From: Nemertoderma westbladi
Taxonomy: Eukaryota > Animalia > Xenacoelomorpha
Reading direction: 5' to 3'
Length of the DNA stretch: 60,592 nt
Assembly: GCA_032718475.1 (NCBI GenBank)
Contig: JAUCBJ010004648.1
Coordinates: 1-60,592, forward strand
Position numbers and translations under genes: made by a program. Position 1 is the stretch's first letter, and each line of letters starts with the position of its first letter. Below, one piece after another: positions 986-45,544 of this stretch. The notes beneath the pieces are model-generated. The model made no database searches and was not told the DNA's origin. It worked only from the letters and a program-made list of their open reading frames with translations.

Positions 986-1403
986 TTAACTGTTTGTCGA
1001 GTGGTTATCGGTATATATATAAACTCGCTTTTATTTAGGATACTTCAGGTACTAGAATCATTAAATTTGCTACTTAAAAGTATATGAATTATCTAATAGA
1101 CCAAACCGTCAATATTTTAGAATTGCTCTTTATTATAAAAAAACTAAAGTAAAATGATAACTACGTGTGTTTAGTAATAACTTTAATATTTCATAAAACT
1201 ACTGTGAAATATCCAAACCGAAAATCTCAAAACAACTGAAAAATATATAATTGTAGGTAAAATTAACTTTGTAAACTTGTGTACCAATTTCCCATTTCCC
1301 ATAATATATTTGAATTTACTGAATCAAATAAATAATGAATAAAGTAAAGTAGCGAGGCACACCGCGTTGGACACAGTAGATGTTGTAAAAATAAGGGAGT
1401 GTT

Positions 1404-2571
1404 TGTACGCGCTTTTGAAGACCTTTAGCAGTTTAACCTGCCAAAATTTATATGTCTTTTGGTTTATAAATAGACTTTAGAAGTTGACAAATATTTAATA
1501 CCAATAAACACAACATTAGCAGAAGCCAGCCTAGTGCGCGTCCATTCACCCGCTGGATATACCCGGGGGGCTGGATTCTGAGGGCTTAGATTATTATTGC
1601 AGTGTAAGCTTACTGTATTATTCGATTGATTGTTAATAAATAATTTCTGACTAATATTATTCACTTTCGGGAAATATTAACAGTTCCTTTAGGACGTGGC
1701 GCTCTATCTAGGTAAACAGAGATATGACTTATACTAATCACAACGGTAAGTCGGTAAGGCTTATGATTCACGTATGAGGCGCATTCTTTAGGAAATGCTT
1801 AGTTATCAGTCACAATCAGGCACACTACCGGTAACACACAATACTGCTCACTAATTTGCAGACCGTCAATGAATTTTATCATATATAAAGAGAACAGCAA
1901 CGGACCCATGTAGTGCTTATCAAATAGCATTAAATTCACTACAAACCACAATAATATAAGTCGCAATCGCTATATATAACCCGTCTCTCTAACCTGTAGT
2001 GTATCAAGAAAATTGGGAAATTTGGGTTCTTTATATATGTTCTCCAAATAATATTCAACCAAAACACAACAGTAAACAGCAGTATAATAATGTATGTTGA
2101 ACCGATAATGTAAGACTGAATTGAGATAAGATAAGATAACAGTTATACGCTCTATAATTTAAGCCTACTAATGTTTCTTCTAAAGTATGAAACGAATTAA
2201 CTTTAGAGCCGGTGTTCCTGGCCTAGATAGAAACAACACAAAGTATCAAAGAAAAAACAGTAAGACTGAACGCTCTAGCATGATCTGCCAAAAGCTCCAC
2301 ATCGACAGAAAAAATCGCTCTAATTGGCTGTTAAGCAAACAAAGAACCATGTGTCCAATGGCCGTTTCCATGTCAGCAACCAGCTGTTAGATGTCGTAAT
2401 CTGAATCATCAAGGCTAAGCTGTGCAAGGGTATTTGGTGCATTGCGGGTTTTTTGCCTTACCATGTCCTCCAAAGCACGTATCTAGAAGAATGACTTTTA
2501 TGTCCGTTAAAACACCTATAACGGTACCTTGCGGGCGAGGGGGACTGAGTATATCCGCAAAAGCTTTTACA
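1404..2571 (-). repeat. 3' LTR of element A (1168 bp)
   Basis: Direct repeat of 18578-19698. By eye it differs by about five substitutions plus a 47-bp segment (2143-2189) that the 5' LTR lacks. Confidence 0.97.
2136..2146 (-). promoter_or_regulatory. Candidate self-primer / transcript 5' end in the LTR (sense ATAACTGTTAT)
   Basis: Exact reverse complement of the 11 nt immediately after the 5' LTR (18567-18577). Confidence 0.6.
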
Positions 2572-2582
2572 CCGCTCCCAGA
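2572..2582 (-). promoter_or_regulatory. Short polypurine tract (TCTGGGAGCGG) abutting the 3' LTR
   Basis: Lies directly before the TGT of the 3' LTR; a degenerate equivalent (TCTGTGAGCAG) precedes the 3' LTR of element B. Confidence 0.65.
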
Positions 2583-2649
2583 AAAAGGGATTCAAGTTTA
2601 TAAATATACAAAAATCACAGTTTCTAATATATGTAAATACTCTAAACAG

Positions 2650-5600
2650 TTAGTCTTTCTTGCGCGGACGGCGTTTACGCAGTTTTTTAAAGCTAGCCAG
2701 AGTCCTTTTCTCTTTGGGGCGAGCCACTTTACAGGGAGGGCTATAACTCCTGGGTGAAGGGTGCAATATGATTGCATCAGAGGGTGTAGGATTATGGTCG
2801 GTGTATCCGCCAGTCGAAGTACCGGGTTGATTGACATCAACGTCGGGGGAGAGGGGTCTAACAGCTTTGAGAGCTCGTTTTAAGACAGCCGCTCTTACGG
2901 GTCCTTTACGAGTGGTCTGAACGAGGGCCGTGGGTGGACCATAGGCAGTTAGAAACCTCCGGGGTTTAATGGTTCTTTCCAACTCGCGTTCGCGGGCTCG
3001 GTATTCGTAAGGCCGTCGATATACTTCCTGTAACTCGGGGTGTGAGTTAACAAACAAGTCTCCATAGTCCGGATCCTGACGGATATAATTGATTAAGTTA
3101 TAGGAATGAAGGTCGCTAGGATTAACACTCCTGAGAAATTTGCGTACGAATTTGGTTGAAATACATTCTCCGACGCGCTTCAGTAGCTCGTAACTCGATA
3201 TGCGTGATTTCTGTTCGACCGAAGCGAATAGATAAGGATGGAACGCATAAACTCCTTCGTAAGCGCGTCCGGGATAATAGCGATGGCGCGAATCACAATG
3301 TAAATCAGCGTTCGCTTCCCAAGCTCTGATGTTACGTAGTGTGATCATTTCATCTACGCTTTCCAAATCGTGATTAAAAGGGCAATCGAAACTGGCATGT
3401 CCCTTTAGCTGACAATGGTGACATTGAGTCATAAATTGAGGGCAAACCGCAAAGATATGCAAGTTATTGAGTCTGCAATATGCGCAATAAATTTCCATAG
3501 TCGGTTGTTCTTGGAAATAGGAACAGCGGACGTTTGTGTCCATGGGCGTATCATGGTCTCTCGATGCACATAACCGACAACGTTGCCTAGAAACATAGTT
3601 GGCATGTTGATAATCGTAAGCAGTGAGACATTGTGGACCTTGATACCATTCTATGATGTAATCGTTGTCGCTGTTCCGGGGCGCGATAGGCTGAATCTCC
3701 TCAGATTCTAGACATATTGGTTCGTCTTCCAAGTGCATAGCCGAGGTGGGCGTGTCTGTCTCTTCAGGCGGACCTATTGTCTGAATTTCCACGACAGAAT
3801 AACCTGTGGGGATTCGAGGTCTTTGTATAACAGAGGAGTGCAAGTTCGATATACAAATCTCTTGGAAAATGGCGAATCCAGCGCTATCCAACTTCTCTGC
3901 AGCTGAGTTTCTTAGGCTGAGTTTGGTCAAAGCGCGGTCTTTAAATTGGCTATCCACGTTGCGGAACGGGGTTAAAAATCGTCGGAAACATTCGAAGCGG
4001 ATGAATTTATTATGTTCATCTAGCTTAGCGAGTTTGGTCCCAAGTATTAATGGATGGGCGCGTATAGTACGACTGCACACATCGGCTAGCCAACCGGCAA
4101 GTGTGGTGTTTTCAAAGATCGTGTATATAGCTAAGGAGGGACGGAGTGGAACACTCATGAAGCTATACACGGCGCCAGGTGCGGTCAATGGTCCATCAAA
4201 GTATAATCGAGAATAATGGTCTCCGTATACTTGTTGATAGTTAATGGGATTTCCGACTTTGAAATTCCATCCGTATTCCTGAAAGGCAAGATGTCCGATG
4301 GAAGTTCGTTGCACCTTTGTAATGTTGCTAGACATGTTAGCATACATGGTGCGGAAGAAACCTCGACCTTCTGCCCAGGGAGCAATCAGCTGAGTATCAA
4401 CGAAAGGGTATGGAATGTTCTCCATATTCCGAAAGTCGTTTTGGAGATCTCCATAAACAGCTGAGCCGATTTTAAGGATTCTTTCGTTGAACAACATCTC
4501 GAGTACGGGCTGGGGTAACATCGATCCATCGATGCCCATGGCCGGTTTGCGTTCGGTGTCAATGACGTAACGCTGCGCGAGTTCGAATTGTCCATGTCGG
4601 AGATTCTTTTGTGTTTCGGTGAGAGTTTCAAAAGAATAATCAATCACGTCGGAACACGCTCGAGTAAACACGTGGGTAGAACCAGCTAATCCGCGTATGT
4701 GGATCATGCGCGTAGTTCCTAGTTCTCCGACCGGAACGCTACCTTCATTATCGTAGGTGACAACTCCATACATCTCAATAACATTAAGAGTTTCATTCCA
4801 CTCCTTGGTGGCGTTCTCTAGGGTCATCCCTACTGGATGCCACAAGGTGGCGCATTGGTTAGCGTCAGGGAGATCGCTATACTTCATGTGCCGAGTGATA
4901 TACGTCTCCACATTTCCATATCTTTGTATTTTCTCTTCATCAAATAATACATCTAGATTCCAATGGACTAATCGAGTTTTAATAAATCCATCGAGATTAT
5001 AAGGGGGTTCTATATCTTTCTCGATTCTAGAAATGTTATATGGTTTTCTAAATGAGTTTACTTTTACTAACTGATCCAGATGTTTCTGCAATTGTTCGAG
5101 TTCGACAATGTCTAGAGGATTTATTAGTGGTAGAAACTTTAAATTATGCGTCGGGTCTTCTGGTTTTACCATATAATATTGAGTCAGATTAACGTAATAA
5201 GGGTGGTCTTTAATCCCATAAAACGAGTTCTGTAAAGGTCTACCGCGTATGTTGACATCGTGTACCATACGACGGACAAGATCCGCTCGATTGTCCGGAG
5301 GTTCAACGAGTATACCGTCAACACGAGCGGCCTCTATCGGCGGACGCTGTAACATAGGGGCGTCAGCGATAAGATTTTGCGATCCTGTACTGATATCAAC
5401 CGGTTGAGGTTGTATCGTCGTGAAGAGTTTGTCTCCGAAATGTGGAATCATCGAGGGATGACGAATGGTTTGAGAGTAGAGGTCTGTCATAAGGATTTGA
5501 GCTTCAGGTTGGGCTAAAGCGGCTTCTTCTCTCTCTTCCAGTTTCGTGTGTTTCTCCTCGAGTAGATTTTCTTCCGCTTGTCTCTGTAAGCGTTCATCCA

Positions 5601-6903
5601 AAAATTCTTGTAGAGAATACGTGCGTCCAAGCTCGATGTCTTCCTCGAGGTTTTGGATTTCTCTATCGAACTGTGGCAAGGCTAGCTCCTTCACCGATTG
5701 GACTTGTTGTTGTAATTTACGTTTCTCTAAACAATCTTGTGTTCCCTTTCCGATCTTCTGTCGAATAGCATCTAAAGCGTTTCTTATAACGCTCTCCTCG
5801 ACTTCCGTGGCGGGTTGCATCAGGTTTAATCCTGGACGATTGTAAGGATCAAAGGGCGATATGAGTTGCCCGCGTCCCAATCCGGCCAAGTAGGATGGGC
5901 GAATGTCTAACGAACCCACTACCGGAGCGCCACCGATTAATTGTTCGGGTAACACTAAGTCTTTGAACAGAGAATATAGTTCGGGAGGATCAGTGATACT
6001 GTTAGGATCAAGAGTTTGAGGTCTCACTAGGGAATGAGGAGGCCTGACCGAGTATTCCGGAACTCTGATCATGGGTTTATTCAGTGATCGTTTAAGACTA
6101 GCGATCGTAGGTGGTACGTCGAACAGGTTTCGCTCGAAACTCCCGTAAGTGTAACGCGTAAAGCTGAGTTTAGCGCAACGTCTCCGCGGATGTTTATGTC
6201 TTTCAGTTTGTTGGTTGGGTCTAGGGCATTCGTCACAATAATACCAAAGACGTACGTCCTGCAGAGGAAACGCGGGTGATCGTTCTCCAGTTTTGCAATA
6301 TTCTTCCATTTGTTCAAAACTATCCGGGATAACAGGTAGTGGACGATCGGCGGTAAGATACATCATCGTGAAATAGAGCCGTTTGAGTTCTACCACAGGG
6401 TCCTGATGTATACCTTGAGGATATCGAGTCTCTAGGTTCTGCTGACTGTCGATGTTGAGATAGGTTTCTCTCAAAAATTCTAGGTATTCGTTGAAGTCGA
6501 TGCGTTTATCCGGTTCTTCAACGTTTTCTCTTTCCAGTCTACTACGAATAGAATTTTCGTGATCTATTCTCGGTTTATCGTTACGACTCCGCTGGGTATG
6601 ATATTTAAATAGAACCATTTCCCTCTCTGTATCTATATCGTCCGTATCATGCAAATCGATAGGATGGCCGGTAGTTAAGAAGTCCATATACGTACCATTA
6701 CGATTCGTATAGCGAGTGGTGAATTTTCGATAGTCCAATTCACGCGCAAGTTGCTCTTGGGACATCGGCGGTTCGATATAACGACCATCGTCCTCCGTAA
6801 TGGTTGGATCGGCTTCACCGCGTATTAAGCTATCCACAAATGCTTGTAAAGGTAGGGCATATCGCTCCCTAATACCAAGATCATCTTCTATCAACTCCGT
6901 CAT
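2650..6903 (-). CDS. Extra ORF3 of element A, 1417 aa: N-terminal Cys/His domain, coiled coil, DEDDy (WRN/RNase D-like) 3'-5' exonuclease, three CCHC-type zinc knuckles, basic C-terminal tail
   Basis: Intact ORF. ExoI VVTYDNEG (D718/E720); ExoII LPQPVLEMLFNERILKIGSAVYGD (D819); FVDTQ; SIGHLAFQEYG; ExoIII-like PLRPSLAIYTIFE (Y927/E931). Knuckles CRLC..H, CAYC..HIFAVC and CHHCQLKGHASFDC. Tail KKLRKRRPRKKD. Confidence 0.85.
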   Translation of the reverse strand: MTELIEDDLGIRERYALPLQAFVDSLIRGEADPTITEDDGRYIEPPMSQEQLARELDYRKFTTRYTNRNGTYMDFLTTGHPIDLHDTDDIDTEREMVLFKYHTQRSRNDKPRIDHENSIRSRLERENVEEPDKRIDFNEYLEFLRETYLNIDSQQNLETRYPQGIHQDPVVELKRLYFTMMYLTADRPLPVIPDSFEQMEEYCKTGERSPAFPLQDVRLWYYCDECPRPNQQTERHKHPRRRCAKLSFTRYTYGSFERNLFDVPPTIASLKRSLNKPMIRVPEYSVRPPHSLVRPQTLDPNSITDPPELYSLFKDLVLPEQLIGGAPVVGSLDIRPSYLAGLGRGQLISPFDPYNRPGLNLMQPATEVEESVIRNALDAIRQKIGKGTQDCLEKRKLQQQVQSVKELALPQFDREIQNLEEDIELGRTYSLQEFLDERLQRQAEENLLEEKHTKLEEREEAALAQPEAQILMTDLYSQTIRHPSMIPHFGDKLFTTIQPQPVDISTGSQNLIADAPMLQRPPIEAARVDGILVEPPDNRADLVRRMVHDVNIRGRPLQNSFYGIKDHPYYVNLTQYYMVKPEDPTHNLKFLPLINPLDIVELEQLQKHLDQLVKVNSFRKPYNISRIEKDIEPPYNLDGFIKTRLVHWNLDVLFDEEKIQRYGNVETYITRHMKYSDLPDANQCATLWHPVGMTLENATKEWNETLNVIEMYGVVTYDNEGSVPVGELGTTRMIHIRGLAGSTHVFTRACSDVIDYSFETLTETQKNLRHGQFELAQRYVIDTERKPAMGIDGSMLPQPVLEMLFNERILKIGSAVYGDLQNDFRNMENIPYPFVDTQLIAPWAEGRGFFRTMYANMSSNITKVQRTSIGHLAFQEYGWNFKVGNPINYQQVYGDHYSRLYFDGPLTAPGAVYSFMSVPLRPSLAIYTIFENTTLAGWLADVCSRTIRAHPLILGTKLAKLDEHNKFIRFECFRRFLTPFRNVDSQFKDRALTKLSLRNSAAEKLDSAGFAIFQEICISNLHSSVIQRPRIPTGYSVVEIQTIGPPEETDTPTSAMHLEDEPICLESEEIQPIAPRNSDNDYIIEWYQGPQCLTAYDYQHANYVSRQRCRLCASRDHDTPMDTNVRCSYFQEQPTMEIYCAYCRLNNLHIFAVCPQFMTQCHHCQLKGHASFDCPFNHDLESVDEMITLRNIRAWEANADLHCDSRHRYYPGRAYEGVYAFHPYLFASVEQKSRISSYELLKRVGECISTKFVRKFLRSVNPSDLHSYNLINYIRQDPDYGDLFVNSHPELQEVYRRPYEYRARERELERTIKPRRFLTAYGPPTALVQTTRKGPVRAAVLKRALKAVRPLSPDVDVNQPGTSTGGYTDHNPTPSDAIILHPSPRSYSPPCKVARPKEKRTLASFKKLRKRRPRKKD

Positions 6904-6944
6904 ATCTGCTATCTGAGTTTATTAATATCAAATATGTTTATATT

Positions 6945-7097
6945 TAGGCGAGCGGGCGTCGCTGCCTACTACTCTTTGCCCCCAGACAGTGGGATTCTCA
7001 GCGCCGATGTACCGTTGTCGCGCTGTTTACGCCAACATGTAGCAACATCACGACAACGATAACCGGCACAAGTCACTCCACTGTCCGTCCCAAAGGC
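6945..7097 (-). ncRNA. Conserved cis-acting RNA stem-loop structure upstream of ORF3 (candidate IRES or regulatory element)
   Basis: Nested stems GGACAGTGG/CCACTGTCT, GTGCCGG/TCGGCGC and TATCGTTGTCGTG/CGCGACAACGGTA, plus a TAGGC..GCCTA hairpin. Compensatory changes are seen in the element B copy (45348-45504). Confidence 0.6.
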
Positions 7098-7721
7098 TTG
7101 GATCCACTTAGGTTCTTTCTATAGGAGAGTTGGGCTACTTTTACAATTGCGACTAGCTACTGTAAACATACTTTAGCAGTAACATTCACCTATAAAGGCA
7201 CAAATTCCACACAACTGTCACCAACTGCACACATACAGGCCATTTGTCCGTTAGTCAGTGCCTTCCAGAATGTCACGTTATTACTGTGTATCCTTGGATA
7301 CTAACAGTATGCTATATATTCTCTATGCTATGCAATGGGACAAGCTTTCTATTGTTCTTTTAACTTGCTTCTAATTCTAGCGTGGGTGTTGCTATGGTGA
7401 CATTATGGAATGCTAGCGGTAGAATTAGGGTAATTCTCATGCATACAGATCTGGGATGCTATTTAATAATAATTCTTTAATTGTCAATATCCTCTTTATG
7501 CATGATTTTATTAATTTTATCGGCTATTGACTATATGTTGGAGATTCTCGCACTCTAATACACTCGATAGGATGAATCTCCGCTCCCGTGATCTATTAAT
7601 TAATGGAATTTTGGGAATGTTATAAATTGCGCAAAATGACAATTTATGAAATTCATTAAAAATATGAATTTAAATTTATTCCCGTGAATTTTATTATTTG
7701 ATGTTAAAATTGACACAATTT

Positions 7722-8010
7722 GATTCCAGAGCAGGTCTGGGGACATAGGATCCTTAATTCTATGAAAATTGTCTTTTAAGAGTATCGGTAAGTGCTGCGA
7801 TATCTTAATTGACTAGAAATTTAAATGATCTGAATTTTACAGATTTTAATAAATATTAAATTAATATTTAAGATGGGCACCGATTTATTCCAGAACTTGT
7901 CTGGGGACGTTAACCACTGATTCTAGAATTTGTCTTTCAAGTATATCGGTGGGTGCCACGATATCTTAATCGACTAGAATTACTGATGGTCAAAAGGTTT
8001 AACAGATTTA
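7722..8010. repeat. Diverged ~160-bp tandem duplication in the pol-ORF3 spacer
   Basis: Two units sharing TTCCAGA..GTCTGGGGAC..TTGTCTTT..TATCGGT..CGATATCTTAAT.GACTAGAA; also present in element B (~44410-44720). Confidence 0.75.
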
Positions 8011-8521
8011 TTTGCGTTTTACGCTACTGTTATATGGACATCACGCTACTATATGTATTATTTAATATAAGGTAGAAGAGCAATATCACACGAAGCAATG
8101 TCAGTGTGAAGAGGCAAGTCGTTTCCAAGGTCTACCCAGAGCTTGGTTTAGCCGAGACACGAGGATCTGAACTTTGCATTCCTAATACTCTGCCTACCAA
8201 TAATACTTGAATATAGTAGTGGCTTTATTGTACTTGAATAAGTACGGACATTTCATCTTACTGTAGTCACGTATTTATAATATGATACGGACAGTAAGGA
8301 AAGAGAAAAATTATTTCTCGCCGTCATACTAAATATATATTATATATGTAATTACGTAATAAACACTAATATATTGCACTAATCTACCAAATAATCTAAA
8401 ATAACCTTCTACTAAATAAAATTGAATAAAAACGATTATAATAAAGTACATAATAAAGTTCGCATATAAAAATATAATAAAATAGATAAAATAATATAGT
8501 GATACACCCACTCCAGACGTA

Positions 8522-11500
8522 TCACGTTGGGGAGTCCCTAGATGTTTGAGGAATTAGGGAGGTGGTCGTGGGAAGAGTGTCTTGCCTTCCATAGTTTCCA
8601 GAGAGTTCTCTGTCTCTTTCCAGTAAACATAAACGACCAACTGGGCGATTGAGTTGTTGCGTCTCAAAGATTATGCCTGGCTTCTTGAAGTTACGCCGCA
8701 TGACGACAAGTTCTACTGAGCGCACTAAACCATCATCCGAGATGTGAGTCTCGATGATACGACCTGTCTGCCACCGTTTACGTGGGAGGTCTTGATCTAC
8801 AATAAGCACCATATCTCCGGCGCTGACGTTTTCTTGCTGCGCAAACCACTTAGTTCGAAGTTGTAGCGTGGGCAGATAATGTTTCTCGAAATGGTCAGCG
8901 AAACGACGGGATAGCAACTGCATAAGTTGCCAAGTTCGACGGCAGTATTCGTCTCCGTCGGCAATCTCCGATCGTGGGAGCATGGCTACAGGTTTCTTCA
9001 GTAGGAAGTGCGCGGGTGTTAGCGCTTCCAGGGAATCGGGACTCGATGAGACTGGCATAAGCGGTCTCTCGTTGAGATAGGCAGCTATTTCCTCCATTAA
9101 CGTCCGCAAAAGTTCGTCGGTGAGATACGCGCGGCATGGCACTATAAAGTGAAATGCGGTTTTGACACTTCGAATTAATCTCTCCCAACTTCCTCCCCAC
9201 CAAGGGGCGTCGGCGGCGTTGAAGGTCCAGCTAGACGCTGTTATCCTTAGCTGGTCGTCCACCTGTCTTTGGTTCCAGTCCTTCACGTAAGCCTGTATTT
9301 CGTTGTTGGCACCAATGAAGTTCGTTCCCTTATCCGATCTCATGGTATTACTCGTCCCGAAGCGAGCGATCTGTCGTCGTAAACTTAATACGAAGCTGTT
9401 GGTAGATAGATCGTTCACCATATCGAGATGGATGGCTCTGCAAGTCATGCATACGAAGATGACACACCATCTCTTGACTATAGTCCTAGCACGATATACT
9501 TCAATAGGGCCAAATAAATCTACACCAGTATTAGTAAAAGGTGGTTCATAGAAGCTTACTCGTTCCCTAGGTAATTCTGCCTCTCGCTGTGTTAAAGGCC
9601 TACTGAATGCTTTCCTACAGGGTATGCAGTTCCTAAGAACTTGGTTCAGAGCTCTACGGGGTTTATCAAAATAATAGCGAGTTTGAATTTCGCTAAGAAC
9701 TCGTTCTCTACCAGCATGATAAAGTTTACTGTGAACATCTACAATCATCTTGATTTGTACTTCAAGATTTCTAATGAGTATGGGGAATTTAGTGTCAAAG
9801 GATAATGGCGCATTGGTGAGCCTTCCTCCAACACGTATTAACCCATCTATCATTGTGCTAGAGAATCGATCCCTTAAGCGCATCTGCGGATTTCTCAACA
9901 ACAGAAAATACTTATCAGAATCCTCATAGCATTGCAGGAGTCTCAGTATCTGCTTATTGGTTTCTTCATGCTCCTGGTAACTAATTTTCTCCTTTAGAAA
10001 CCGGTCGGATGTTTTATATTTGGGTAAATTTTTAATAACATGAACTTGCGCAGATGTCAATGGAGCGGTATCACTAGTGGTCTTAGTCCTGGAGTAGTGA
10101 TGATGAAGACATAGTCTTAAATATGTGACGGCTTTACAGAGCCTATTCCAGGAACTGTAGTGATGCATTGCTCTCTGCAGCAGGGGTGAGATTCCTTGCG
10201 AGACGTCTGGTATTCCAGATTTCCAATCTCTATCTCGAATTTCCGCAACAGACTTATTTGTGGCGAGGGATTGTGGATCCGAAGCATCGTTTCCGGAAGC
10301 ATGTAATACAGATAGATCGATAGTCGGTTTAAATAACTTCGATTTACTCGCCCGGGTTTTAGGTTTGACTGTCTCCGCTCCCTTGGCTTGTCTAATCTGC
10401 GCCGTAGTAAGGTGAGGAGGCCATTCATCCTCTTCCTTGCTCAGGAAGTCGGGTCCACCCAACCAATCTGGAGTATCTATCAGTTCCTGTGGAGTTGCTC
10501 CCCTGGAGGCGATATCGGCTGGATTAATCGTACCAGGGCAATGTCTCCATTGATCTATCTTTGTGCGACTAAGAATAATAGCTAACCTGTTAGTAACAAA
10601 AACGCTGAACTGACAGACTTCATTGGTTAGATACTCCAACACGAGTAAAGCGTCGGTCCAATAAACCGTTTTCTCCAGTGGATAGTCGATTTGTTCCGTT
10701 ACGTTCCGGCCGATGGCTGTAGCGTATAAAGCCGCCTTTAACTCCGCTCGAGGAACCTTTAACTTGTTGTTAATCAATGAGGTAACCAAGGCGACTTTGA
10801 TTCCATCCGGGGTTTCGACTCGCAGATATTCTACTATACCTATTCCCATGTCGCTGGCGTCTCCAAACACATGGAGTTGATAGGAATACGTAGGAAGAAC
10901 ATGGCCAAAATATGCACGGGAAATTATAAAGTTCTCGATGGCAGGTAGAGAATCTTCCCATTTCATCCATTTCTTTAACAATTCTCCCTTAAGCGGATCG
11001 TCCCATGAGTGGTTTTCAAGCCACATTTGTTGTACTAAACTCCGAGCAATCAATATAACTGGGCTTATAAATCCCAATAGGTCGAAATAAGTGCTCAGGA
11101 TACTTAAACAAATCCTTTTGGTCCGAACTGGATTATCTCGCTGTTTTAACTGAAAAAACAGGATGTCTCTTTCAGTGTCCCACTTCAAGCCAAGCGTCTT
11201 GGTTTCAGGAAGATCGTCCTTTATTAAGTCTAGGTCTTTCGCTCCTCGGTCTTCTACCGGTATCGCTTCCAGAAACTCACGGGAGTTGCTGGTGAATTTC
11301 GTCAGTCGAAATCCACCTCTTTTCAAACACTCTACCGTTCCTTTCGCGACATCTATGGCTTCTTCTACTGATGGAAGGGACCTTAAATTGTCGTCCATGT
11401 ATATATTCCGTTTGATGTTGTCTATCACCTCTTTTGAGAAGGCGTCTCGGTTGTCATTCGCAGTGGTTCGCACCACGGAGCAGGCGTTGGAAGGGCTTGA

Positions 11501-14500
11501 TATGATCCCAAAAGCCTGGATGGTCATCCAGTACTCTACCGGTTTCTGGTTGAGGTCTCCTTCAGGCCACCACAGAAATCTCAGACTGTCTCTATCTCTA
11601 TCCAGCGCCTTGACTTGTAAGAACATTCCTTCTATATCGGAGGCGAACGCGATGGAATATTGTCTTAATCTCAAAAGTATTCCCAACAAAGATTGGAGTA
11701 AGTTGGGTCCTGGTAACAACTCGGAATTGAGGGATTGGCCCATATATAGGGCGGAGCCATCGAATACGACTCGTACTTCGTGGGGTTTACCGGGTTTGGG
11801 AACGTAATGATGTGTTAAGTAATACGTTCTCTCAGTCACTGGTGTTCCCTCCGGTACTCGCTCCGCGTATCCCTTTTTTATAAATTTCTTCAATTGAGTT
11901 TGGTACATTTCTTTAGCTGAAGCATTAGCCGTAAGGCGTCGATGTAATTGAGCGATTCTTTTCTCTGCCAAGGGTCTGTTATTTATAAATCTAGGTTCTC
12001 GTTTTCGAAATGGTAGGCCGATTTCATATCTACCTTGGTCCTTTAAAAAACGTGTAGTTGTTTCCTGGATTTGCTTGGCTCTTTCTTCTTCTATCGATAG
12101 AGCCTTATCGTATGAATTGGGCTCTACCAGTTCTTGAGTAAAGAATCGTACGGCTAGTTCGTCCCGAGTTCTAGCGTTGTAGCGCTCTATCTCATCGTTT
12201 AGTTCGTCATTGTAAGCAATGGGTTCCGATGGGCGTATCAGTTGACATAGGTTCACCTGATTTTTCCAAGTTTTGTTTTCTGTAAGTAGGTCGATTGTGT
12301 TCTCTTCATCGAAGAGTTGGTAGATGTCGTCATTATCTGAGGAGTATGGTGTTCCCTCAGTTAGTTCGTCCACCTCACTGCTCTCCTCTTCCCAATCGTT
12401 TACTTGGTATATTCGTTCTTGTGGCATTCTCTCTTCGAGAGTCCTGCGGGAAGGGCCAGTAAAGTACCAACCTACTCTAGTTCTTACTGCATAGGTTTGC
12501 AGTGGCTGCGGTTGAGCAGGCCGTTTCTCCAATGTTTCGAGCGCCTCATGCGCGTTTTGGCCGATGAGTATTTGCACTCCAGGATAATCTGTCTGGAATC
12601 GAGGTATCTTAAGATGTTGGATACTCTCATCCTCGTCCCAATTATAAAGGTCTGCCTGAGTAGTAGCGAAGTTCTTTATAGCCACCATTTTTACCGACCT
12701 TATACCTTGTACTCCTAATTTATCCTGGGGGGTGGACAACACACCTACATAGTAATCTGCCGTTAGGGTAGATTTCCAAACCTGCATAATTCCTGACATA
12801 TTCAATTTAGTCCGGACTTTGGGTTGTCCAGCAAAGATATCTTCGGCTAATTCTTGATCGATGAATGTTCCTGTGCTGCCGGAGTCAAGGAGTGCGTTCA
12901 CTATGTAACTGTGGTTAGGACCGTGAACTCTTACCTGCACTACAGGAAATTCTCTGATTCCTACGTTGGAAGTTGGAGCTTTCCAAGATGGTTGTTTGGC
13001 AAAAGTAGTTGTGGGAAACTCATTGTTGGTGTCCTTTTTATAAGTACACTTTACGTCGGAGTAACAGGTTCGCCGTTGGTGTCCTGGTCTGAGGCAATTA
13101 TAGCATAACCGCTTATCCCATACGACTGCACGTCTGTCTACAAGGGATTTCTTTAGAAATTCAGCACACGCACTCAAACGGTGGGTACCGTCGCACAGCG
13201 CACAGTTAGGTTTTATGTTACTCACTTTACCTTGGTTAACCTGATGCACTCTCGTTCTTTGTTCGGGCTTTCTTACGTGCATTCTGTTAGGGGACTGAGG
13301 AGGGGTCTTGGCAACCTGTTCTCTCCTATCGTTGGTTCGAGCTTTATATTTACTTACGTCTTTTGAGGTTTTGCCAACATAGTAAGATCGATCAGTGTCT
13401 TTCCCGCTGTCCTCTTCTTGAGAAGCTTGGCTTTCGCCGTCGTCAGTGTAACACACCGGTGTTACTCTTCTCCTAGAAGCGGGTTTCTCACTTACCTTAT
13501 TTTCCGATGTTTTCTCTCTGGACTGCTTGATGAGTTGTAGTTTTACTTCACCATCTAAGAAGGACATGAGATCAGCCATGGTAGGGCTTCGTCGTTGTTG
13601 TTCATTCATGTACAACACTTTCTTGTCCCAGCGTGTACATACTCCACCCTTTGGTAAAGTAGAGACTACGGCTCCAATAACCATGGAACTCTGATATTCA
13701 TGAGACTTACCTAACCAGTCCAATTGTCTACAGATCTCCTGAATCTCATCGGAAAACTCTATAATCCCGCTACTAAGGAAGTTTCGGGGGGCTACTAATT
13801 TTGCATACAAATACTTAGCTATGTTATCCTTGTTACCATACCTGATGTTTAATGTATCCCAAACTTGTCTTAATCCTTCTGGATGTCCAATAAACTTTAA
13901 CGCCATTAACTTGGGAGGTCCTTCCAAGCACTTGATGAGGAATCTAAGTTTCTCTCCGTTAGATAGTACAGAGTTCTGTATGCTATCTTTGTAATATTCA
14001 TTGAAAGGTAACCATTTCATCTCATCTCCATTGAATTTAACGATCTCTCCCACTTTGACCGCTTGGCGGGCTTCTGTTCTAGCCATCTGACGCGTAAAGC
14101 TTTCTTGGGCCATCGTGTTATTTAATATCGAATTATCGGTATATAAATTTCTCGGATCATTATCAGGTCTATAGGGAATATCATTAACAACAGATTTATA
14201 ATCACCCTTAATAGGGTTTGCTATAGGAGTTTCTACTTCACTAGCAGTATAGATGCGTGTAGGCTCCACACCTTGCGCATGTAATACTTCAGACCTAACA
14301 GGTTGACACAATGTTACTGGGGGTATTGGTATGCCCTTTTGTATGTTGACTAATTTGTCGCGTTCTAGTGCGATACTTTGCTGCACTTCTTGCAATTCTG
14401 CCCTACCTTCCCTTACTGTTCCCTTAAGTTGGTGGACAGTCTCCTGCATCTGTCCGAGCAGGAGATTCATCCCCCGCCGTCCCTCCTCTACCCACTCGAC

Positions 14501-16351
14501 CGCCGAAGCGGGAGTCGCCAACATTGTAGCGGGCTGACGCGGGACGACGGGAGACAAATCTTTGATTTCTCTCTCAGCTTCCAGGACAGGGATATTCTCA
14601 TGGACTGTTCTACCGGGTACAGGCAGTGTAGTACTGTGCAAAGGGAACTTAGAGTTAAGCTCTGGAAGTACAGGGGTCTCTAGCACAGGAGTGACTTTGG
14701 TAACGACAGGCCTAATTATTTCAGGCTCATCAACTATAGTAGGGAGTTTTTTGACCTTAATAATTTGGTCTGTAGGTTCTATTCTACCTAAGTCTGTGCT
14801 AGCTAGTTGCCTTCTCACAGCTGGGGGCAAATCAGGCAATTTGTGATGGTAAGATGTTTTTCTACGCCTGCTTAGACGAGATCTATTTCCTCCGCCTTCA
14901 GGATCGGTGGTTTCGCTTTCCTCCGATGACGTATATCCCTGGCGTTTGGGAGTAGATCTTCTCATCATCTGCATGTGACTAGCAGTTAACTGTTTATTTA
15001 TGTTGTCTTGCGTCTCTTGCAGATTTTCCAACTCCAGTTGGGTAGTCTCCTCAGAGGCTCTCCGTTCTGCTTCTGCCACTGCCTTAGCTGCTTTTCTTTC
15101 TGCTTCTGCTTCTGCCGCCGCTGCCTTTCTTTCTGCTTCCACTTCGGCCATTGCCGCTGTTACTGCAGCTGCCTTTCGGTCCTCTATCCGTTTTTTCTTT
15201 ACTTGTTCTTCTTGGACTCTAGTGAGGCGGAGTTTTTCATCAAATTCAGCTTGGTTAGCAGCTAACATTTCAGCATCGATTGAGTCTAACACACGCTGGG
15301 TTCCTTCACTATTAGGGGAAAGTCCAGACAGCCGTCTCCTCAACTCTTCGTCTCCTAGGAATCGCTGATAGTCGGACAGATAAATGTCGATGGCGTCTCT
15401 CGTTCGTGGTCTCTCTGCGGTCTCTTCGCCTTCCACTTGAGAAAGGGTGGCATCGGTTGGTTCTTCATAGGTTAGTCTCTCAGACAGCTGGGATTTCCAC
15501 TGGTCCGTTTCTTATACTTTGAGACCTACCCGCTGGAACCAAGTTTTGACAGCAACCTGCAGCGACGTGTCCTGTCTTCTTTTGGAAGTTTCCTCAAAGG
15601 CTGATAGGATTAGTCTAATGCGTAGGGTTCTTTCACGTACTTGATAAAGCAGCTCTTCCTGCTCTTGAGGTCCTTGGGGTTGTCGAAACAATTGTTCTTC
15701 CAATCGCTCTAAGGAGCCGAAGAATCCCTGCACATATCCTGCTGCCGACCTCTTCCAAACAGCTGGATACATCGTATCTTTAGCCACTCCCATCCTGTGT
15801 ATATCTTCCCAAGTAGCTTCGGACAAATCTAACGGGAGTCCGGGTCCGGGAAAGTTCCATTGTGACTCGACAATAGACATCAATTCTTCCCTGGCGTATC
15901 CCGCATAATTATCTTGGGTCGCTCTCATACTTCTCGCCCAATCGGCTTGATGTTCTTCCACCACAATCAATATAGTAGTTAGTACTGCGGCAGGAAGGGT
16001 GAGAAGGGGGTCCGAGTAGGCTGTAGCCGCCATCTGCAATCCGCGTTCGGGGGTCAGCTCTACAGTATCCGAACTACTGGAGCTATCTGATCGCTGGGAA
16101 CAAGTTTCTTGGCTAGGATGTTGCTGCTGTTGGACAGCTGCTTCCTGGTTCCGTTTGACTTGGGCCCGAGTGCCGATGATAGACCTACGGTGTTGGATTA
16201 GCTTAGGGTCTGATACTACTACTGGAGGGATGACCTTTCTTTCAGTAGGAGGTGAGCTGAACTCCTTTCTTAATCGCTCCACACTCCTATCTGTGTCACA
16301 GATGGTTGTATCGATTAGACTGTCTGACAGGTTTTGCTGGGTGTCAGACAT
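8522..16351 (-). CDS. BEL/Pao gag-pol polyprotein of element A (single frame, one in-frame TAA at 15512-15514)
   Basis: ORFs 16351-15512 and 15436-8522 are in the same frame; element B has CAA at the stop position. Motifs: gag KFNGD..W..F, Cys/His knuckles, protease LLDSGS, RT YMDD, RNase H VFGDASD, integrase H..H/CIPC, DLFGP, SDKG, WERLIRSVK. Confidence 0.93.
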
Positions 16352-17688
16352 ATTTAGCTATACAGTTGAATGTCTACTGCTATAGTTACAGTTAAAGCAA
16401 GTCTATTAATTCAGTATGACCGTTGGCCTAGTACCGGTAATTTATTGCAGTATATTAGAATACCGGTATACACTTATAATATATATAAGTATTGTAAACT
16501 AGTTTTGTCACAGAGTACCGATATATAAATTTAGCACAAATATATATAAATATATAATAGGCCTATCGTGAATACCGGTATACAGCTTACACTTATAGTA
16601 TATATAAGTATAATTATGAACTAGAATTAATTACAGAGTACCGGTATGATTTCAGCCCAAATTTATAGAAATAAATATAATAAGCCTATGGTAAATACCG
16701 GTATGTCAATTATTTTAGAATAATTGAATTTCTGAATATTTTAGGGTTACTTGGTTACTTTAACTTACTTTATTACCGTTATTTAAGCAGTAGTCCAACT
16801 GATATTGAGACCTAGTTGTTGGATGGCAGGCCTACTGTTTATAAATCGTTTGAGTTGATTTATAATAGATAGATACCCGTTTAAAATGGGTTTTGTCAAT
16901 ATTTGAAATAAATGTTATTATTTCTGGGGAAGTCACTACACAGAAGCTGTGCGCTCTCAGTGAAGTGCTACTTATGGGACACTAAAACAGATTATTCTAA
17001 TTTACCTAAGTTACTTAATACTACAAATTACTTACGATACGGGTGAAATTAATTCTTTAATTAAAACACAACAAAATATTATGTACGAAATTTTAGGGTA
17101 ATTTTACAGGAAGTCTACAAACCAGCCTAACAAAGGGTTAGAATTCTGGTTATTACAAAGGACAGGGTACTGCGGTATTTGAAAATAATAAGTAGTAGTA
17201 AATATATTGCACTGTCCAGATAGGAAAATACCACCGCCTGACGACCTATAGCCGTATCGCTATAGGTACTACGTTATGTATCACCTACCTGGAAGTTAAT
17301 TACCGCGGACTACCAGATCCAACGTGCCTATTAACCACTTTAGAACACAAATATACTGCCTACACACTAATTACCTTCGGAAAGCACTGTACACTAAACC
17401 CTAAATTAGGTACAAGTACTGGTACAACAAATAATCTGTAGTTAAATATACTTGAACAGTTAAAAGAACCACGGCATCTGCTGGAGTGACCGAAGCACAA
17501 AGTCACCAGTCTTTTCCTACGCCAAGCAGCCCGTGTAGTACCAGGGTTAATTTAACTATAACGGTATGTGTAACAAACACAATTACTGTAGGAATAAACT
17601 TGGGGACATGAATGTTGCGAATAATCGCATAAACTCTGAATAATAAATATTACGCTACCCGTACAGAATACTCAAACAAATACAAACC

Positions 17689-18230
17689 AAACGCTGGCAG
17701 ACTACCACCAAGCCTAAATAAACTACCGTACGTGTAGATTCCGAAATGGTTAGTTAGTATGCGTTCTAACACGGTAGTACGACTTATTCTTTAAGAGGGG
17801 ATTGACCTTACAGCTATGGCTGCCCCAACTTACTAACTGGCACTTTATCAGACAAACTCTACACACGCAGCAATCTCTTCAGACCTAATAATAGCTAGAC
17901 AACAATCCAGCCTACAAAATATCTGAGTAATAACTATTACGGTACCTGAACAGACCACACAAACAAACACAGGCCAAAACGCTGGCAGAATACTGTCAAG
18001 CCTAAATAAACTACAGTATGTGCAGATTCCAAAATGGTTAGTTAGTATGCGTTCTAACACGGTAGTACGACTTATTCTTTAAGAGGGGATTGACCTTACA
18101 GCTATGGCTGCCCCAACTTACTAACTGGCACTCTATCGGACAAACTCTACACACGCCGTAATCTCTCTAAACCCAACAACAATCTAACAACAGTCCGGCC
18201 TACAATTATCTGAACAATCTGAGCAGACTT
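17689..18230. repeat. ~288-bp tandem duplication in the 5' leader of element A
   Basis: AAACGCTGGCAGA...GCCTAAATAAACTAC... starts at ~17689 and again at ~17977; single copy in element B. Confidence 0.85.
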
Positions 18231-18388
18231 ACACGTCTTCAGCTCAATATTAACTTACTAGGAAATAAAACCGACAGAAATAAGTAAAATCTCAATAAAA
18301 AACCAGGGCTGCAGTCCCTGATTAAATACTAAGACCTACCGGTATACAATAATCAAAATCGAATAATACTAATGTACTTATACTGGAA

Positions 18389-18511
18389 GTACCGGTTAGG
18401 ACAGTTGGGCCTACGGACCTACAGAAGTACCGGTTCTGGCAGTTGGACCTACGGACCTACAGCAGTACCGGTTCTGGCAGTTGGGCCTACTGACCTACAG
18501 AAGTACCGGTT
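18389..18511. repeat. 38-bp tandem repeat, three copies plus a partial
   Basis: GTACCGGTTCTGGCAGTTGGRCCTACGGACCTACAGAA-like units start at 18389, 18427, 18465 and 18503. Confidence 0.9.
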
Positions 18512-18566
18512 CAGGTTTACCGGTCGACCGGTACTTTCAACTTTATTGCTTACTGCAATAAAGACA

Positions 18567-18577
18567 ATAACTGTTAT
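18567..18577 (-). promoter_or_regulatory. Non-tRNA primer-binding site of element A (sense ATAACAGTTAT)
   Basis: Directly follows the 5' LTR, lacks the TGG expected for tRNA CCA pairing, and is complementary to LTR motif 2136-2146. Confidence 0.65.
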
Positions 18578-19698
18578 TGTACGCGCTTTTGAAGACCTTT
18601 AGCAGTTTAACCTGCCAAAATTTATATGTCTTTTGGTTTATAAATAGAGTTTAGAAGTTGACAAATATTTAATACCAATAAACACAACATTAGCAGAAGC
18701 CAGCCTAGTGCGCGTCCATTCACCCGCTGGATATACCCGGGGGGCTGGATTCTGAGGGCTTAGATTATTATTGCAGTGTAAGCTTACTGTATTATTCGAT
18801 TGATCGTTAATAAATAATTTCTGACTAATATTATTCACTTTCGGGAAATATTAACAGTTCCTTTAGGACGTGGCGCTCTATCTAGGTAAACAGAGATATG
18901 ACTTATACTAATCACAACGGTAAGTCGGTAAGGCTTATGATTCACGTATGAGGCGCATTCTTTAGGAAATGCTTAGTTATCAGTCACAATCAGGCACACT
19001 ACCGGTAACACACAATACTGCTCACTAATTTGCAGACCGTCAATGAATTTTATCATATATAAAGAGAACAGCAATGGACCCATGTAGTGCTTATCAAATA
19101 GCATTAAATTCACTACAAACCACAATAATATAAGTCGCAATCGCTATATATAACCCGTCTCTCTAACCTGTAGTGTATCAAGAAAATTGGGAAATTTGGG
19201 TTCTTTATATATGTTCTCCAAATAATATTCAACCAAAACACAACAGTAAACAGCAGTATAATAATGTATGTTGAACCGATAATGTAAGACTGAATTGAGA
19301 TAAGATAAGATAACAGAAACGAATTAACTCTAGAGCCGGTGTTCCTGGCCTAGATAGAAACAACACAAAGTATCAAAGAAAAAACAGTAAGACTGAACGC
19401 TCTAGCATGATCTGCCAAAAGCTCCACATCGACAGAAAAAATCGCTCTGATTGGCTGTTAAGCAAACAAAGAACCATGTGTCCAATGGCCGTTTCCATGT
19501 CAGCAACCAGCTGTTAGATGTCGTAATCTGAATCATCAAGGCTAAGCTGTGCAAGGGTATTTGGTGCATTGCGGGTTTTTTGCCTTACCATGTCCTCCAA
19601 AGCACGTATCTAGAAGAATGACTTTTATGTCCGTTAAAACACCTATAACGGTACCTTGCGGGCGAGGGGGACTGAGTATATCCGCAAAAGCTTTTACA
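18578..19698 (-). repeat. 5' LTR of element A (1121 bp)
   Basis: Direct repeat of 1404-2571, TG...CA, followed by TSD GTGTT. Confidence 0.97.
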
Positions 19699-25346: not shown

Positions 25347-26923
25347 CCCTATTAAACCCGGGGGGGGGGGGGGGGGGGGTCAATATGACCCCTCCCGTGG
25401 TTTTTTTATTATAATTCTGAAACAAACGCAGTTGGGAATCTGAAATTTTATGACTTTTCCTAAAAATCTATTGTCTTCCTAGTAGTGAAAACCGTTTTCA
25501 AAAATATTGGGTACTTTTCGAGTTATAGCGCCATTTTTTAACCCTACTTTTGGCACTTTTTTTGAGACGTTTTTTGAAAATTACATTTCATTAAATATGA
25601 ATTGTAACATCTCTATTTTTTATTTACACGGTTTTTTTGGTGTTAGAAATTTGATGGAATTCATATAAATTGATTTAGAAATTTTAAACATGTTTTTTTC
25701 GGTGGGTGCCAAATTTTGGTGCCAGCACCAAATTTTGAAATAAGTCAATTTTGTAAATTGATCGTTTGAAACTTGTTTTTTTACGCAATTGGGGTTTTTT
25801 GGGTTTCTGGATTCGAAGAAATATATACGAGTTGCACCAAGCGTATCAAACTTGTATTTTTCGGTGCTGTGTGCAAATTTTGGTGCTAGCACGAAATTTT
25901 GAAAATCCATTCAATAGATAAAATTGCTTGTGAGAATTTATTTCTTGCGTTTTAGAGGTTTATGGCTGTTCTGAATTCAATGGAAAATATAATTATCGAA
26001 CTAGACATCTCAAACTTGTATTTTTCGGATGTGGGTGCAAAATGTGGTGCTAGCACCAAATTTTGAAAACCATCAAATATATCAATTGATTGTGTCACCT
26101 TGTTTCTTGCGTTATACGGGTTTGTGATGGTTCTGAATTCAATAGAATCAGTAAAAATTTCATAAGAGTTGTCAAACTTGTATTTTTCGCCGGTGGGTGA
26201 AAATTGTTGTGCCAGCACCAAATTTTGGAAAATATGCAAATTGATAAGTAGATAGTATCACCTTGTTTCTTGCGTTATACGGGTTTATGAGGGTCCTGAA
26301 TCCGATGGAATCAATAAAAACTGCACTGGACATCGCAAACTTGTACTTTTTGGTGATGGGTACGAAATTTGGTGCTAGCACCAAAATTTCCCAAATTACG
26401 CCGAAAAATACAAGTAGCAATGATCTAGCATATTAGAAATGTATTCCATTAGAATCCGCGCCCTCGAAAACCTGAAAATGTGAATTTATAGCATCGTATA
26501 AGTGAATTAAAAATTTTGAGTTCTAACTGAAAAGTGCTGGTTACTTGTTTTTTTCATTTTTTTCCTACGCAGAGAGGACTAAACAGCCATTTATAGTAAT
26601 CATATCATTTTTTAATATTTTCCAATGTATTTTACACCCCAGAAAACCTGTATTGAAAAATAATTAGCCGAAAATGTAACTTTCAAATTTGGTGAAAATT
26701 GTGCACGACTTGTAATTTTGGTGCTGCAATATAACCACCCCAGTACATTTTTTCGAAATTTTTTTTTTTCGGTCGGATCCAGACAAGTGATACCTACGTA
26801 CAAACAAAAAATCAGACGTTTTCGTAAATATTTGTAGATTTTAGAGGGGGGGGGGGGGGGGGGGGGTCAATATGACCCTTTCCCGGTATTTGTACAACAT
26901 TTTATAGCCCGGTACTAATAGGG
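25347..26923. mobile_element. piggyBac-like non-autonomous element
   Basis: TTAA on both sides (25343-25346, 26924-26927); CCCTATTA/TAATAGGG inverted termini; subterminal direct repeat G(n)TCAATATGACCC; about five internal ~163-bp tandem repeats; no ORF. Confidence 0.85.
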
Positions 26924-28272
26924 TTAAGGTAGATATCTACAGTACTACGTAAAAAACTTTCTAAATCCGATGTATTTTACCTTGATTTGTAGTTGTTGTA
27001 ATTTGCCTATTTCCTACAATAGTTATAATTTCACTTGGGTTTCCGTTGGCGCAATGGTCGAGTAGGTTAATCTCAGATATCTCAGATTCAGACAGGAAAA
27101 AACCCCGGTCAACATGCATCTCCTACAGGTGCGAGCTGTTGCTGTTTGTCAGTACACGCAAGTACACTTAGGTGCGAATAGCACGCTCTATAATTTGGTG
27201 ATTTGCAGTACTAACAGTACAGTACCGGTTAGCTTTGTAGGCCTTATAGATTGACTGACCTGTCTGATTTCAAAGTATTTGATCAGGCAAGAGGCAGCTT
27301 TCTGCTACTGGCACAAGTTCGGCTAAGCGAGGTTTACTAACATCCTACCGCACCCTTATTTACTGCTGATCACCGCAGTAACAAAGTTCTAGAATCAAAT
27401 TTATATACCAGAGCAGCTATACGTACAAAGTATTGGTAAATTAACCAATAAGGTAGTAAATTAACACCTATTTCCTTATCTCACAATCAGAATCTGGTAT
27501 TTGTGCCAATCACGGGTGTAGTTACTAACACCGTAATTGCCCGGTTGAGTTATTAACGAAGGAGCAGAGAGCCCTTTTGATGTCAGTTTGTAAGTATTGC
27601 AGCTACAACGTGCGACTAGCTTAATCGAGTAGCTAGTGCCCGGTATTGTTATTTTGTTAAAATCACCAAAACCTAATATAACGGCGATACACCAAAATTG
27701 TTTTACTCGTAACACACACACACACACACACGTCTTGGGATCTAAGCTGGGCTACTGATTATGGTACGAATATTCTATTATTTGAGGAGATATTTGGTAT
27801 TTGTTTTACTCAGGCATAGAGGCACCCTTTTGACTGCTATTTTCCTGTCGGCAGTATTGTTTTACGCTAGTGTCGTTGACCTGCTAGCTCGTATATACCC
27901 ATATAAATCACACCGCGGCAAGTTTACAGTATTTTAGGTCCATTAGCGATAGTTAGGATTCGCTCCGCGGGGATTGTTTTCCCGTGAGTTTAGTATGTAT
28001 TGGTAGACTGTACATCTGCCTCACCGGTTAGAGGCCGGGCATCCTGTTTGTCTAGTTAGCCCGGGCATTTGATTTGCCCAAGTATTAGACAGTATAGACA
28101 TCAGGCTCCATTCCCCACCAGTAGTAGTTGGTGTAATTAGTATCTGTTTATTTAGACACCCTGGACTGGGATTTCTTGTCAGATACTGTACGAGCCCGTA
28201 TACACTGCTGGATTATACAGTAAGGTACTTCGTTATTAGGATCTGGTAGGCGGTATACTATTGGACTTATCA

Positions 28273-28281
28273 GTAGGAGAT
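28273..28281 (+). promoter_or_regulatory. Non-tRNA PBS of element D (GTAGGAGAT), repeated three times in ~43-bp units to ~28370
   Basis: Follows the inferred LTR end TTATCA; complementary to ATCTCCTAC at 27118-27126. Confidence 0.5.
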
Positions 28282-29112
28282 ATATAACTATATCTTATTT
28301 AGCTATTGTAACTCAGTAGGAGATATATTAATATATCTTATTTAGCTATTTTTACTCAGTAGGAGATATTTTATACATTAAAATTAGTAGAATTAGTAAT
28401 TTGTAGAATATTTCTTACCGATAGGCCTTTAGGGTAGCTAGTAGTTTTGTATTTGGCTAGCTGTAGATAGCTAGTTAGATTGTAATAATATGGTCTTAGG
28501 CCGTGTATGTGCGGTGTTACTTTTTTCGGTACTTGAAAAGGTATGCAAGACCAATTTGTATCAGTACCCAGGAAAATTTTTTTGTAGAGTAGTCCATAAA
28601 ACTCTCACCTTCGATTTTTCAGGACTCAAGGATTCATTTCTGGACCGCCTCGAAGGATTAGGCCGTTTTTAGCTAGTTTGGGAGGTACACGATTCGTCCG
28701 CGACGCTGGAAACGGAACAGTTCTCGTCCAGTTTGTATCTGGGGATCTGTATGACTGGAAGATCAAAGAAACGTAAGTTTTACGACTCGTGTCGTTTAAA
28801 CTTAGAGCACAGTAGTACTCAAAATTTGTGGGTTCCACTGTCTAATTTATGTGTTTGTTGGTACTTATTTTCCCTAGACATTGCTGTTTTGCCTATTATT
28901 TGTACTTGTTGATATATATTTTGGTAGCGTATACCGCTATCTCACTTATTCATATAGATTTAGCCGGTAGGCTGAATTAGTAATACTTTTATTATATACA
29001 CTTTTTGATTTTATTTGTACTGGTTAGGGTATATATAGTATATATATATATACCAAGGTAAGTTTTGACATTTTGACATTTATTACCCGTATTCGATGTA
29101 TACAATGCAGAC

Positions 29113-34198: not shown

Positions 34199-34201
34199 AT
34201 A

Positions 34202-35361: not shown

Positions 35362-35859
35362 TGTAAAAGCTTTTGCGGATATAACTGGCCCTTTTTCTCC
35401 GCAATGTACTGTGTAAGGTGTTTTAGAGGACATAACAAGCGATTTTATCAGCTATGTCTGCATGTGTGCTCTAACGGACATAAAAAGCCAGTTTTCCCAC
35501 AATTCGCTCAAATACTCTAAACTACCTAACTCAAATGACGCAATCTACAAGCTGATTTGCTGTGCGCACATAGCCTCTTTGTTCTGTTCTACCAACCAAT
35601 CAGAGCGATTTCGCCTTGTGTTGGAGAAGGCCTGCAAAAACCCGAATAGTTCGGCATTTAGACATTTGCGGAATCTGTAGAATCTGGAGCTCAGCCAATG
35701 AGAGCTTTTTCTCTTTACATTGAGAGATGCCTACAGAAACCCACGCAATTCAGTCAGTGTGTATCTTTCTAAGCCAGAACACCGGCTTAGGATTCTTCTG
35801 TACTTCTGTAGAAGTTTCAGACTTTGGCCAGAACATTAGATGCCTTTGATTATCGAAAC

Positions 35860-35871
35860 ATAAACTATTAC
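35860..35871 (+). promoter_or_regulatory. Candidate self-primer in the LTR of B (ATAAACTATTAC)
   Basis: Exact reverse complement of 36900-36911; same LTR context as the motif in A; repeated at 47634-47645. Confidence 0.65.
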
Positions 35872-36228
35872 CAACGGTCAATGGTCAACGGTGCACAATC
35901 CACGGTACGGTACCGTACAAAAACAATTACTGCATTATTTCACTGTCTGTTATTAATGGTTAAATCTGTTGATGGATATATTGTTATATTTAGAGAATAT
36001 CGATAAAGAACCCAAAAAACCCCAATCTTATTGATTATTTAAGGTTAGAGGACAGGTTACCGGTAGCAATTGCGACTTACATTATAGTGGTTCTGGAGTG
36101 AATTAAATGCTATTTCATAATCCCTACAGTGTGTCATGTTGCTATCCTCCTTATATATGATAAAATTCAGTAACTGTCGGCAGATCAGTGTGAAGCAGTG
36201 TGAAGTTGTGTGCGGTGATGAGACTGGT

Positions 36229-45504: not shown

Positions 45505-45544
45505 ATATAATGAATTATAATATTGATAAACTCATATAGCAACG

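Follow-up and report, generated by a model that had tools for sequence, protein, structure and literature searches.

The window, i.e., the whole stretch of 60,592 nucleotides analysed here, consists of animal-like DNA in which LTR elements are nested in one another. Element A occupies positions 1403–19698 on the minus strand, with LTRs at 19698–18577 and 2571–1403 that differ by 5 mismatches over 1122 aligned bases, and with a flank duplication of 4 bp at its borders as drawn here. Its gag-pol frame (8522–16351, minus strand) is divided by a single in-frame stop at 15514–15512. Given that the frame encodes DUF1759, Peptidase_A17, an integrase zinc domain and DUF5641, a domain set that marks the family, the carrier is, by its predicted proteins, a BEL/Pao LTR retrotransposon; among the 120 matches listed, the closest proteins to A gag-pol are 38–45% identical to it and have the same domains. 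Element B (35362–50536, plus strand; 5-bp target duplication) is ~84% identical to A, lacks a counterpart of the stop in gag-pol, and carries three large internal deletions and a broken extra ORF. Its LTRs differ at 14 of 1042 bases, and the 3′ one is interrupted by an insertion of 2.1 kb (47786–49925). B is itself inserted into element C (50538–55037, minus strand), a distant BEL/Pao element.

Several further features accompany these elements. At 27224–34200 (plus strand) there is one more BEL/Pao element, decayed and with C as a relative, and a tandem repeat with a unit of ~163 nt, present in at least 4 copies, occupies 25634–26394. The 2.2-kb leader of A contains repeats of 38 nt and 288 nt, and no TGG-type primer site is visible at 18576–18540 (minus strand), 3′ of its 5′ LTR. 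Directly after the pol stop (8526–8504, minus strand), a purine-rich run followed by TGT matches the tract before the 3′ LTR at 7 of 12 positions and is possibly a second or relic polypurine tract.

Downstream of pol, A carries an extra ORF of 1417 aa (2650–6903, minus strand), which the initial annotation designated ORF3; it is actually the second ORF of the element, because ORF1 and pol of A form one frame, the stop between them being absent from B. The comparison of A with B yields a dN/dS of 0.18 (95% interval 0.14–0.24; 438 codons), next to 0.22–0.25 for gag-pol, which places ORF3 under purifying selection. The protein has no match in Pfam or PDB, and its residues 1–330 have none in the Atlas. 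A single homolog (P0124, unnamed; E 1.5e-6) was retrieved among 1.84 billion representatives; it in turn retrieved only itself, has the central domain and zinc knuckles in common with ORF3 in the same layout, and matches PF01612 weakly (E 0.037). In the Atlas, ORF3 residues 690–1030 are grouped with 3′-5′ exonuclease clusters (score 0.93; 161–168 shared features), 28–41% of whose members carry PF01612. Collectively, these comparisons lend moderate support to a DEDDy-type domain at approximately residues 760–945, followed by a zinc-knuckle-like Cys/His cluster (~1108–1175) and a basic C-terminus. At the presumed catalytic motif positions, the two-sequence alignment with P0124 keeps the Asp of the first motif and places a Ser opposite the Glu of the homolog, and the third motif reads Tyr-x3-Glu; the first motif thus looks altered. 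Two AlphaFold models had a pLDDT of ~30. The best Atlas clusters for the domain are composed mostly of giant-virus proteins, and viral contigs held no relatives of ORF3 or pol.

Extra ORFs located 3′ of pol and carrying a DEDDy-like exonuclease domain have been reported in the Juno and Vesta LTR elements of bdelloid rotifers, where their role was described as to be determined, an acidic D-to-E change was noted, and ORF3s were stated to be typically expressed via spliced messages (PMC5408684). The passages of that article considered here describe no RNA structure upstream of these ORFs. The likeness to ORF3 of A is one of description, and ORF3 differs in its BEL/Pao carrier, its length of 1417 aa, its zinc knuckles and its seemingly altered first motif. 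Hence, the predicted DEDDy ORF3 is itself of a known kind, but no BEL/Pao carrier of such an ORF was found in the literature searched, mostly non-subscription journals, and the present element would extend DEDDy-like extra ORFs to this superfamily.

Pol and ORF3 of A are separated by a non-coding spacer (6904–8521, minus strand), whose measured length of 1618 nt agrees with the 1.6 kb initially given. The spacer holds 19 AUGs and is ~90% identical between A and B, whereas synonymous sites differ by 30–58%. Two tandem units of ~160 nt with multi-stem folds (z −3.6) lie at 7690–8015 (minus strand) in A and at 44403–44750 (plus strand) in B, with 5 double-changed pairs among the 4 units. An origin of the spacer as an old LTR was considered and rejected, a single 20-nt match being all that was detected, and no Pol III B-box was found.

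Shortly before its 3′ end, the spacer holds the feature on which we focus. A long nested stem-loop and a second hairpin had been described as ending ~40 nt before the ATG in both copies, and the coordinates, sequences and folding all bear this out. In A, the predicted fold spans 153 nt of the element's sense (minus) strand and consists of a long bulged helix (7097–6971), with a firm core at 7087–6983, a weak outer helix and an apical 4-bp stem-loop, and of a small hairpin (6968–6945) with a 5-nt loop, 19 nt of which are invariant between A and B. The fold of B (45348–45504, plus strand) has the same two parts, the long helix at 45348–45471 and the small hairpin at 45481–45504, and the distance from the 3′ end of the fold to the ORF3 AUG is 41 nt in one copy and 40 nt in the other. 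The predicted sense-strand energies are −76.4 kcal/mol for A and −81.4 kcal/mol for B, with z scores of −5.5 and −5.6 and none of 200 shuffles equally stable, versus antisense z scores of −1.8 and −2.9. Among 121 windows of 150 nt tiled across the ~18 kb of A, the fold region ranks strongest, and 41 of its pairs have a probability of at least 0.9.

Comparison of the two copies indicates that it is the pairing that has been kept. Within the fold, A and B are identical at 125 of 153 positions (82%), a level above that of synonymous sites and below the ~90% of the spacer overall; the invariant runs are the helix base and the small hairpin, and mid-helix both arms change jointly. The consensus fold has 55 pairs, of which 43 are the same in the two copies, 9 differ in one partner and 3 in both partners. 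When the fold predicted from one copy was read with the letters of the other, 4 of 60 and 3 of 57 pairs were broken, against 11.9 and 14.1 expected when the 36 changes are placed randomly, and none of 5000 permutations did as well; among firm pairs, breakage was 1 of 41 and 1 of 43. On the antisense strand the broken share was at or above chance, a strand asymmetry seen also in the z scores and in line with the earlier remark that several single changes exchange Watson-Crick for G-U pairs, which work on the sense strand only. Both double changes claimed in the initial annotation (GTGCCGG/TCGGCGC versus GCGCTGA/TCAGCGC, and TATCG/CGGTA versus TATTG/CAGTA) are among the three found. The claim of compensatory change thus stands as far as pairs are kept across changes, but the three double changes alone, drawn from two full copies only, do not exceed chance (P 0.11–0.13; 60 of 500 in a second test).

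Partial copies of the fold, recovered from 14 contigs of one sequencing run (whose contigs are hereafter the contig set), added 19 listed changes, 9 of them at firm pairs. Seven of these 9 keep the pairing on their own, one is rescued by a partner change listed with an equal contig depth, which makes a double change that B lacks, and one is undecidable; judged singly, the variants give P 0.08. In the searches made, no third full copy and no homolog beyond the window were found. No Rfam family matches the fold, the three matches in 6850–8600 being chance ones off the fold (E 1.4–7.7). Motif scans returned 13 metagenome and 2 viral loci, all attributable to chance, with a best model score of 23 bits, compared with 190–202 for A and B, and none in prokaryote genomes. 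The original description as an IRES-like or other cis element therefore finds no Rfam family in its support, and it is the broader wording, another cis element, that holds. Taken together, the two-copy comparison provides good support for a functional sense-strand RNA cis element; this conserved structure in a retroelement spacer is, as judged from the sequences, real and previously undescribed, although of a generally known kind.

What the element does is less certain. Given that ORF3 is selected and is preceded by 1618 nt with 19 AUGs, a special expression route seems to be needed, and with that many AUGs, we infer, scanning from pol cannot be this route. The reading we tentatively prefer, at a little under an even chance, is that the fold is a selected, sense-strand structured leader that lets ribosomes start ORF3 without scanning through it. 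Ribosomes would be recruited at the helix base, or passed over it, by internal entry or shunting, and would reach the AU-rich linker and initiate at the first AUG, ~40 nt 3′ of the fold. The message would be either the full-length RNA or an RNA spliced to an acceptor-like AG that precedes the fold by 22 nt. The link of the fold to ORF3 expression is plausible on positional grounds: by a hand estimate, the chance of a fold lying so near the AUG within the spacer is ~3–4%. The linker of A (6904–6944, minus strand) is ~80% A/U (33 of 41 nt) and free of AUGs, and the helix of A contains two AUGs that are absent from B; in A, where ORF3 is intact, AUGs in the helix and none in the linker are what a bypass of the helix by ribosomes would predict. 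In B, the linker has an out-of-frame AUG at 45510, the ORF3 start being at 45545.

The acceptor-like site, a pyrimidine stretch with AG at 7119–7135 (minus strand; B counterpart at 45325), also occurs in two loose ends of the contig set. As one of three such sites common to A and B it is a weak lead; it is the closest to the start in both, the interval from the fold to the AUG containing none. A spliced ORF3 message that uses this AG, and hence retains the whole fold, is therefore possible.

Among the observations that speak against the structured leader are the following: element C has no such fold 5′ of its decayed ORF3 relic; conservation spans the whole spacer, rather than the fold alone; and, in a longer fold of A, the linker pairs with the start region. 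Picornavirus type I and II IRESs have a pyrimidine tract before the AUG and a GNRA loop, and in the fold region the longest pyrimidine run is 3 nt and the loops, of 5–6 nt, include no GNRA. Hepacivirus-type IRESs have a pseudoknot beside the AUG; here, a pairing between an invariant GGGC and the GCCC in the small loop is possible (4 bp, with a 9-nt spacing in both copies), in competition with the outer helix. Of the proposal that an IRES-like element allows ORF3 expression, the cis element itself, its position ~40 nt before the AUG, the selection on ORF3 and the 19 AUGs remain, whereas the lack of an Rfam IRES, of a pyrimidine tract and of a GNRA loop, the possible spliced message and the intact fold in B, whose ORF3 is dead, weigh against it.

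Two described mechanisms of initiation were rejected in their classic form. The caulimovirus-type shunt resembles the present arrangement in that a large stable stem-loop is followed by an AU-rich stretch and then the main AUG, but in RTBV and RTSV a short upstream ORF ends 7–8 nt before the helix (PMC5902531). No such ORF is seen here, the gaps being 21 nt in A and 42 nt in B, from different upstream ORFs, and the fold is internal to the genomic RNA rather than 5′-terminal; moreover, the AU-rich stretch is paired in the longer fold of A. Termination-reinitiation of the calicivirus TURBS type is brought to mind by an AUGA at the start and by the UGGGA at the helix base (7088–7092, minus strand), the sole UGGGA of the A spacer and the same in B, which we take, as a weak lead, for a possible ribosome tether motif; in the longer fold it is paired in A and unpaired in B. 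However, the start is not reached by any ORF from upstream, all three frames being closed no more than 70 nt upstream in both copies.

The main competing explanation, a serious possibility though one we do not consider probable, is that the fold is a shape-read signal for export, localisation or packaging of the full-length RNA, perhaps bound by the ORF3 protein and required in cis by non-autonomous copies, with its proximity to the AUG incidental or secondary. It draws on B, in which the fold is intact and ORF3 broke before the last insertion. The B ORF3 contains 5 stops in 443 codons, as compared to none in 1510 gag-pol codons (P 0.0006; 9 versus 3 when frameshifts are included). Since only 0.37 stops are expected in it since insertion, the excess indicates that the B line moved with a dead ORF3, over an implied divergence of 3–22%, which the nonsynonymous distance, in our own reading, caps at ~8%. 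The letters of B break 1 of 41 core pairs, and neutral decay would leave no more than one broken core pair with P 0.58, 0.22 and 0.04 at 3, 5 and 9% divergence; the test is thus weak at the low end. Retention of the fold in B is moderate evidence for a role in the full-length RNA, although recombination could join a fresh spacer to an old ORF3, the first 121 codons of B being free of stops.

The same explanation fits the keeping of shape as sequence drifts (82% identity versus ~90% for the spacer), and the nucleic-acid-binding types of the ORF3 domains. It also fits the deletions in the contig set: among the joints listed (15 of 20, plus one table), the fold is lost only in two, both LTR-to-LTR, although the edges of others come to within 27 nt downstream of the AUG or 88 nt inside the pol end. 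By a hand estimate, however, six random 2-kb deletions would spare a 150-nt target ~40% of the time, and a signal on the full-length RNA leaves the 40-nt distance to the AUG unexplained. The nearest analogue is the RNA transport element of mouse IAP, a non-coding cis element that is located 3′ of pol and persists in copies with internal deletions (PMC4383553). The same is found for the fold, weakly, over few deletions; the likeness is by description and concerns a putative function, and here a 1417-aa ORF follows instead of a PPT and an LTR. Weighed by hand, placement before the AUG counts about fifteenfold for a tie to ORF3 initiation, retention in B about fourfold for independence from ORF3, and our prior twofold for export-type elements; the structured leader and the export, packaging or binding role can both hold.

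The boldest reading, an unlikely one, joins the two: the ORF3 protein, with its seemingly altered exonuclease-like domain, zinc knuckles and basic tail, would bind the helix and thereby serve export or packaging of the full-length RNA while tuning its own translation, a Rev/RRE-like circuit in a BEL/Pao element that would derive from a nuclease fold. If true, it would account for the site of the fold next to the AUG as well as for its survival in copies with a dead ORF3, and would supply a job for DEDDy ORF3s. We note that ORF3 of B is open over 121 codons (45545–45910) and that a deletion in the contig set (3729–6534) spares 123 codons; a short N-terminal product of ORF3, or its RNA, may matter.

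It is very unlikely that the fold stalls a 5′-3′ exoribonuclease, or directs RNA cutting, to yield a subgenomic RNA bearing ORF3. Plant-virus xrRNAs are intergenic, lie shortly 5′ of downstream ORFs and adopt a compact P1/P2/pseudoknot shape (10.1101/433672). The fold shares the intergenic position of xrRNA_TL, and the 4-bp GGGC/GCCC pairing is possible in both copies. This pairing, however, shows no variation and stands in competition with the outer helix, and no pseudoknot is supported; the 130-nt helix is unlike the compact xrRNA, and Rfam gives no match. The upstream tandem units offer a possible 6-bp loop-to-downstream pairing, but, whereas unit 1 exceeds chance (25 and 12 of 2000), unit 2 does not (627 and 459 of 2000).

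More doubtful still is a role of the long helix as a precursor of small RNAs or as a brake limiting ORF3 translation. With its more than 30 pairs and −76 kcal/mol, such a bulged helix would hinder scanning ribosomes, but the arms change together mid-helix, unlike a conserved guide strand, and the invariant runs belong to the helix base and the small hairpin. Finally, a functionless chance or relic inverted repeat, for which the small number of full copies (two), the nonsignificant double changes and the P of 0.08 for the contig variants could be cited, is highly improbable in view of the strand asymmetry, the permutation test of pair keeping and the identity above that of synonymous sites.

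The structured leader that we prefer has partial parallels among LTR elements. Drosophila gypsy has IRESs in addition to a spliced env RNA (PMC4276936), and the Mytilus mussel element MchSLE-1 has a tested IRES in its antisense 5′ UTR (PMC10974842). In both of these LTR elements, as in the present one, an ORF hardly accessible to scanning ribosomes is preceded by structured non-coding RNA; here, the superfamily is another one, there is no sequence or Rfam match, the spacer measures 1.6 kb, the ORF is not an envelope gene, and the activity is that of a candidate. The wider question is by which route LTR elements express extra ORFs far 3′ of pol and what exonuclease-like ORF3s contribute, and the fold, compact at 153 nt and with natural variants in which the pairing is kept, is a candidate amenable to testing in isolation. 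As to the distant element C, its relic of the N-terminal part of ORF3 is 38% identical over 68 aa. A strong hairpin of 15 bp also lies near 52025–51990, ~110 nt after the C pol. As a lead only, noticed after the fact, one arm of its stem shares an 8-mer with the fold, a match recovered in 42 of 5000 hairpin shuffles and 661 of 5000 spacer shuffles.
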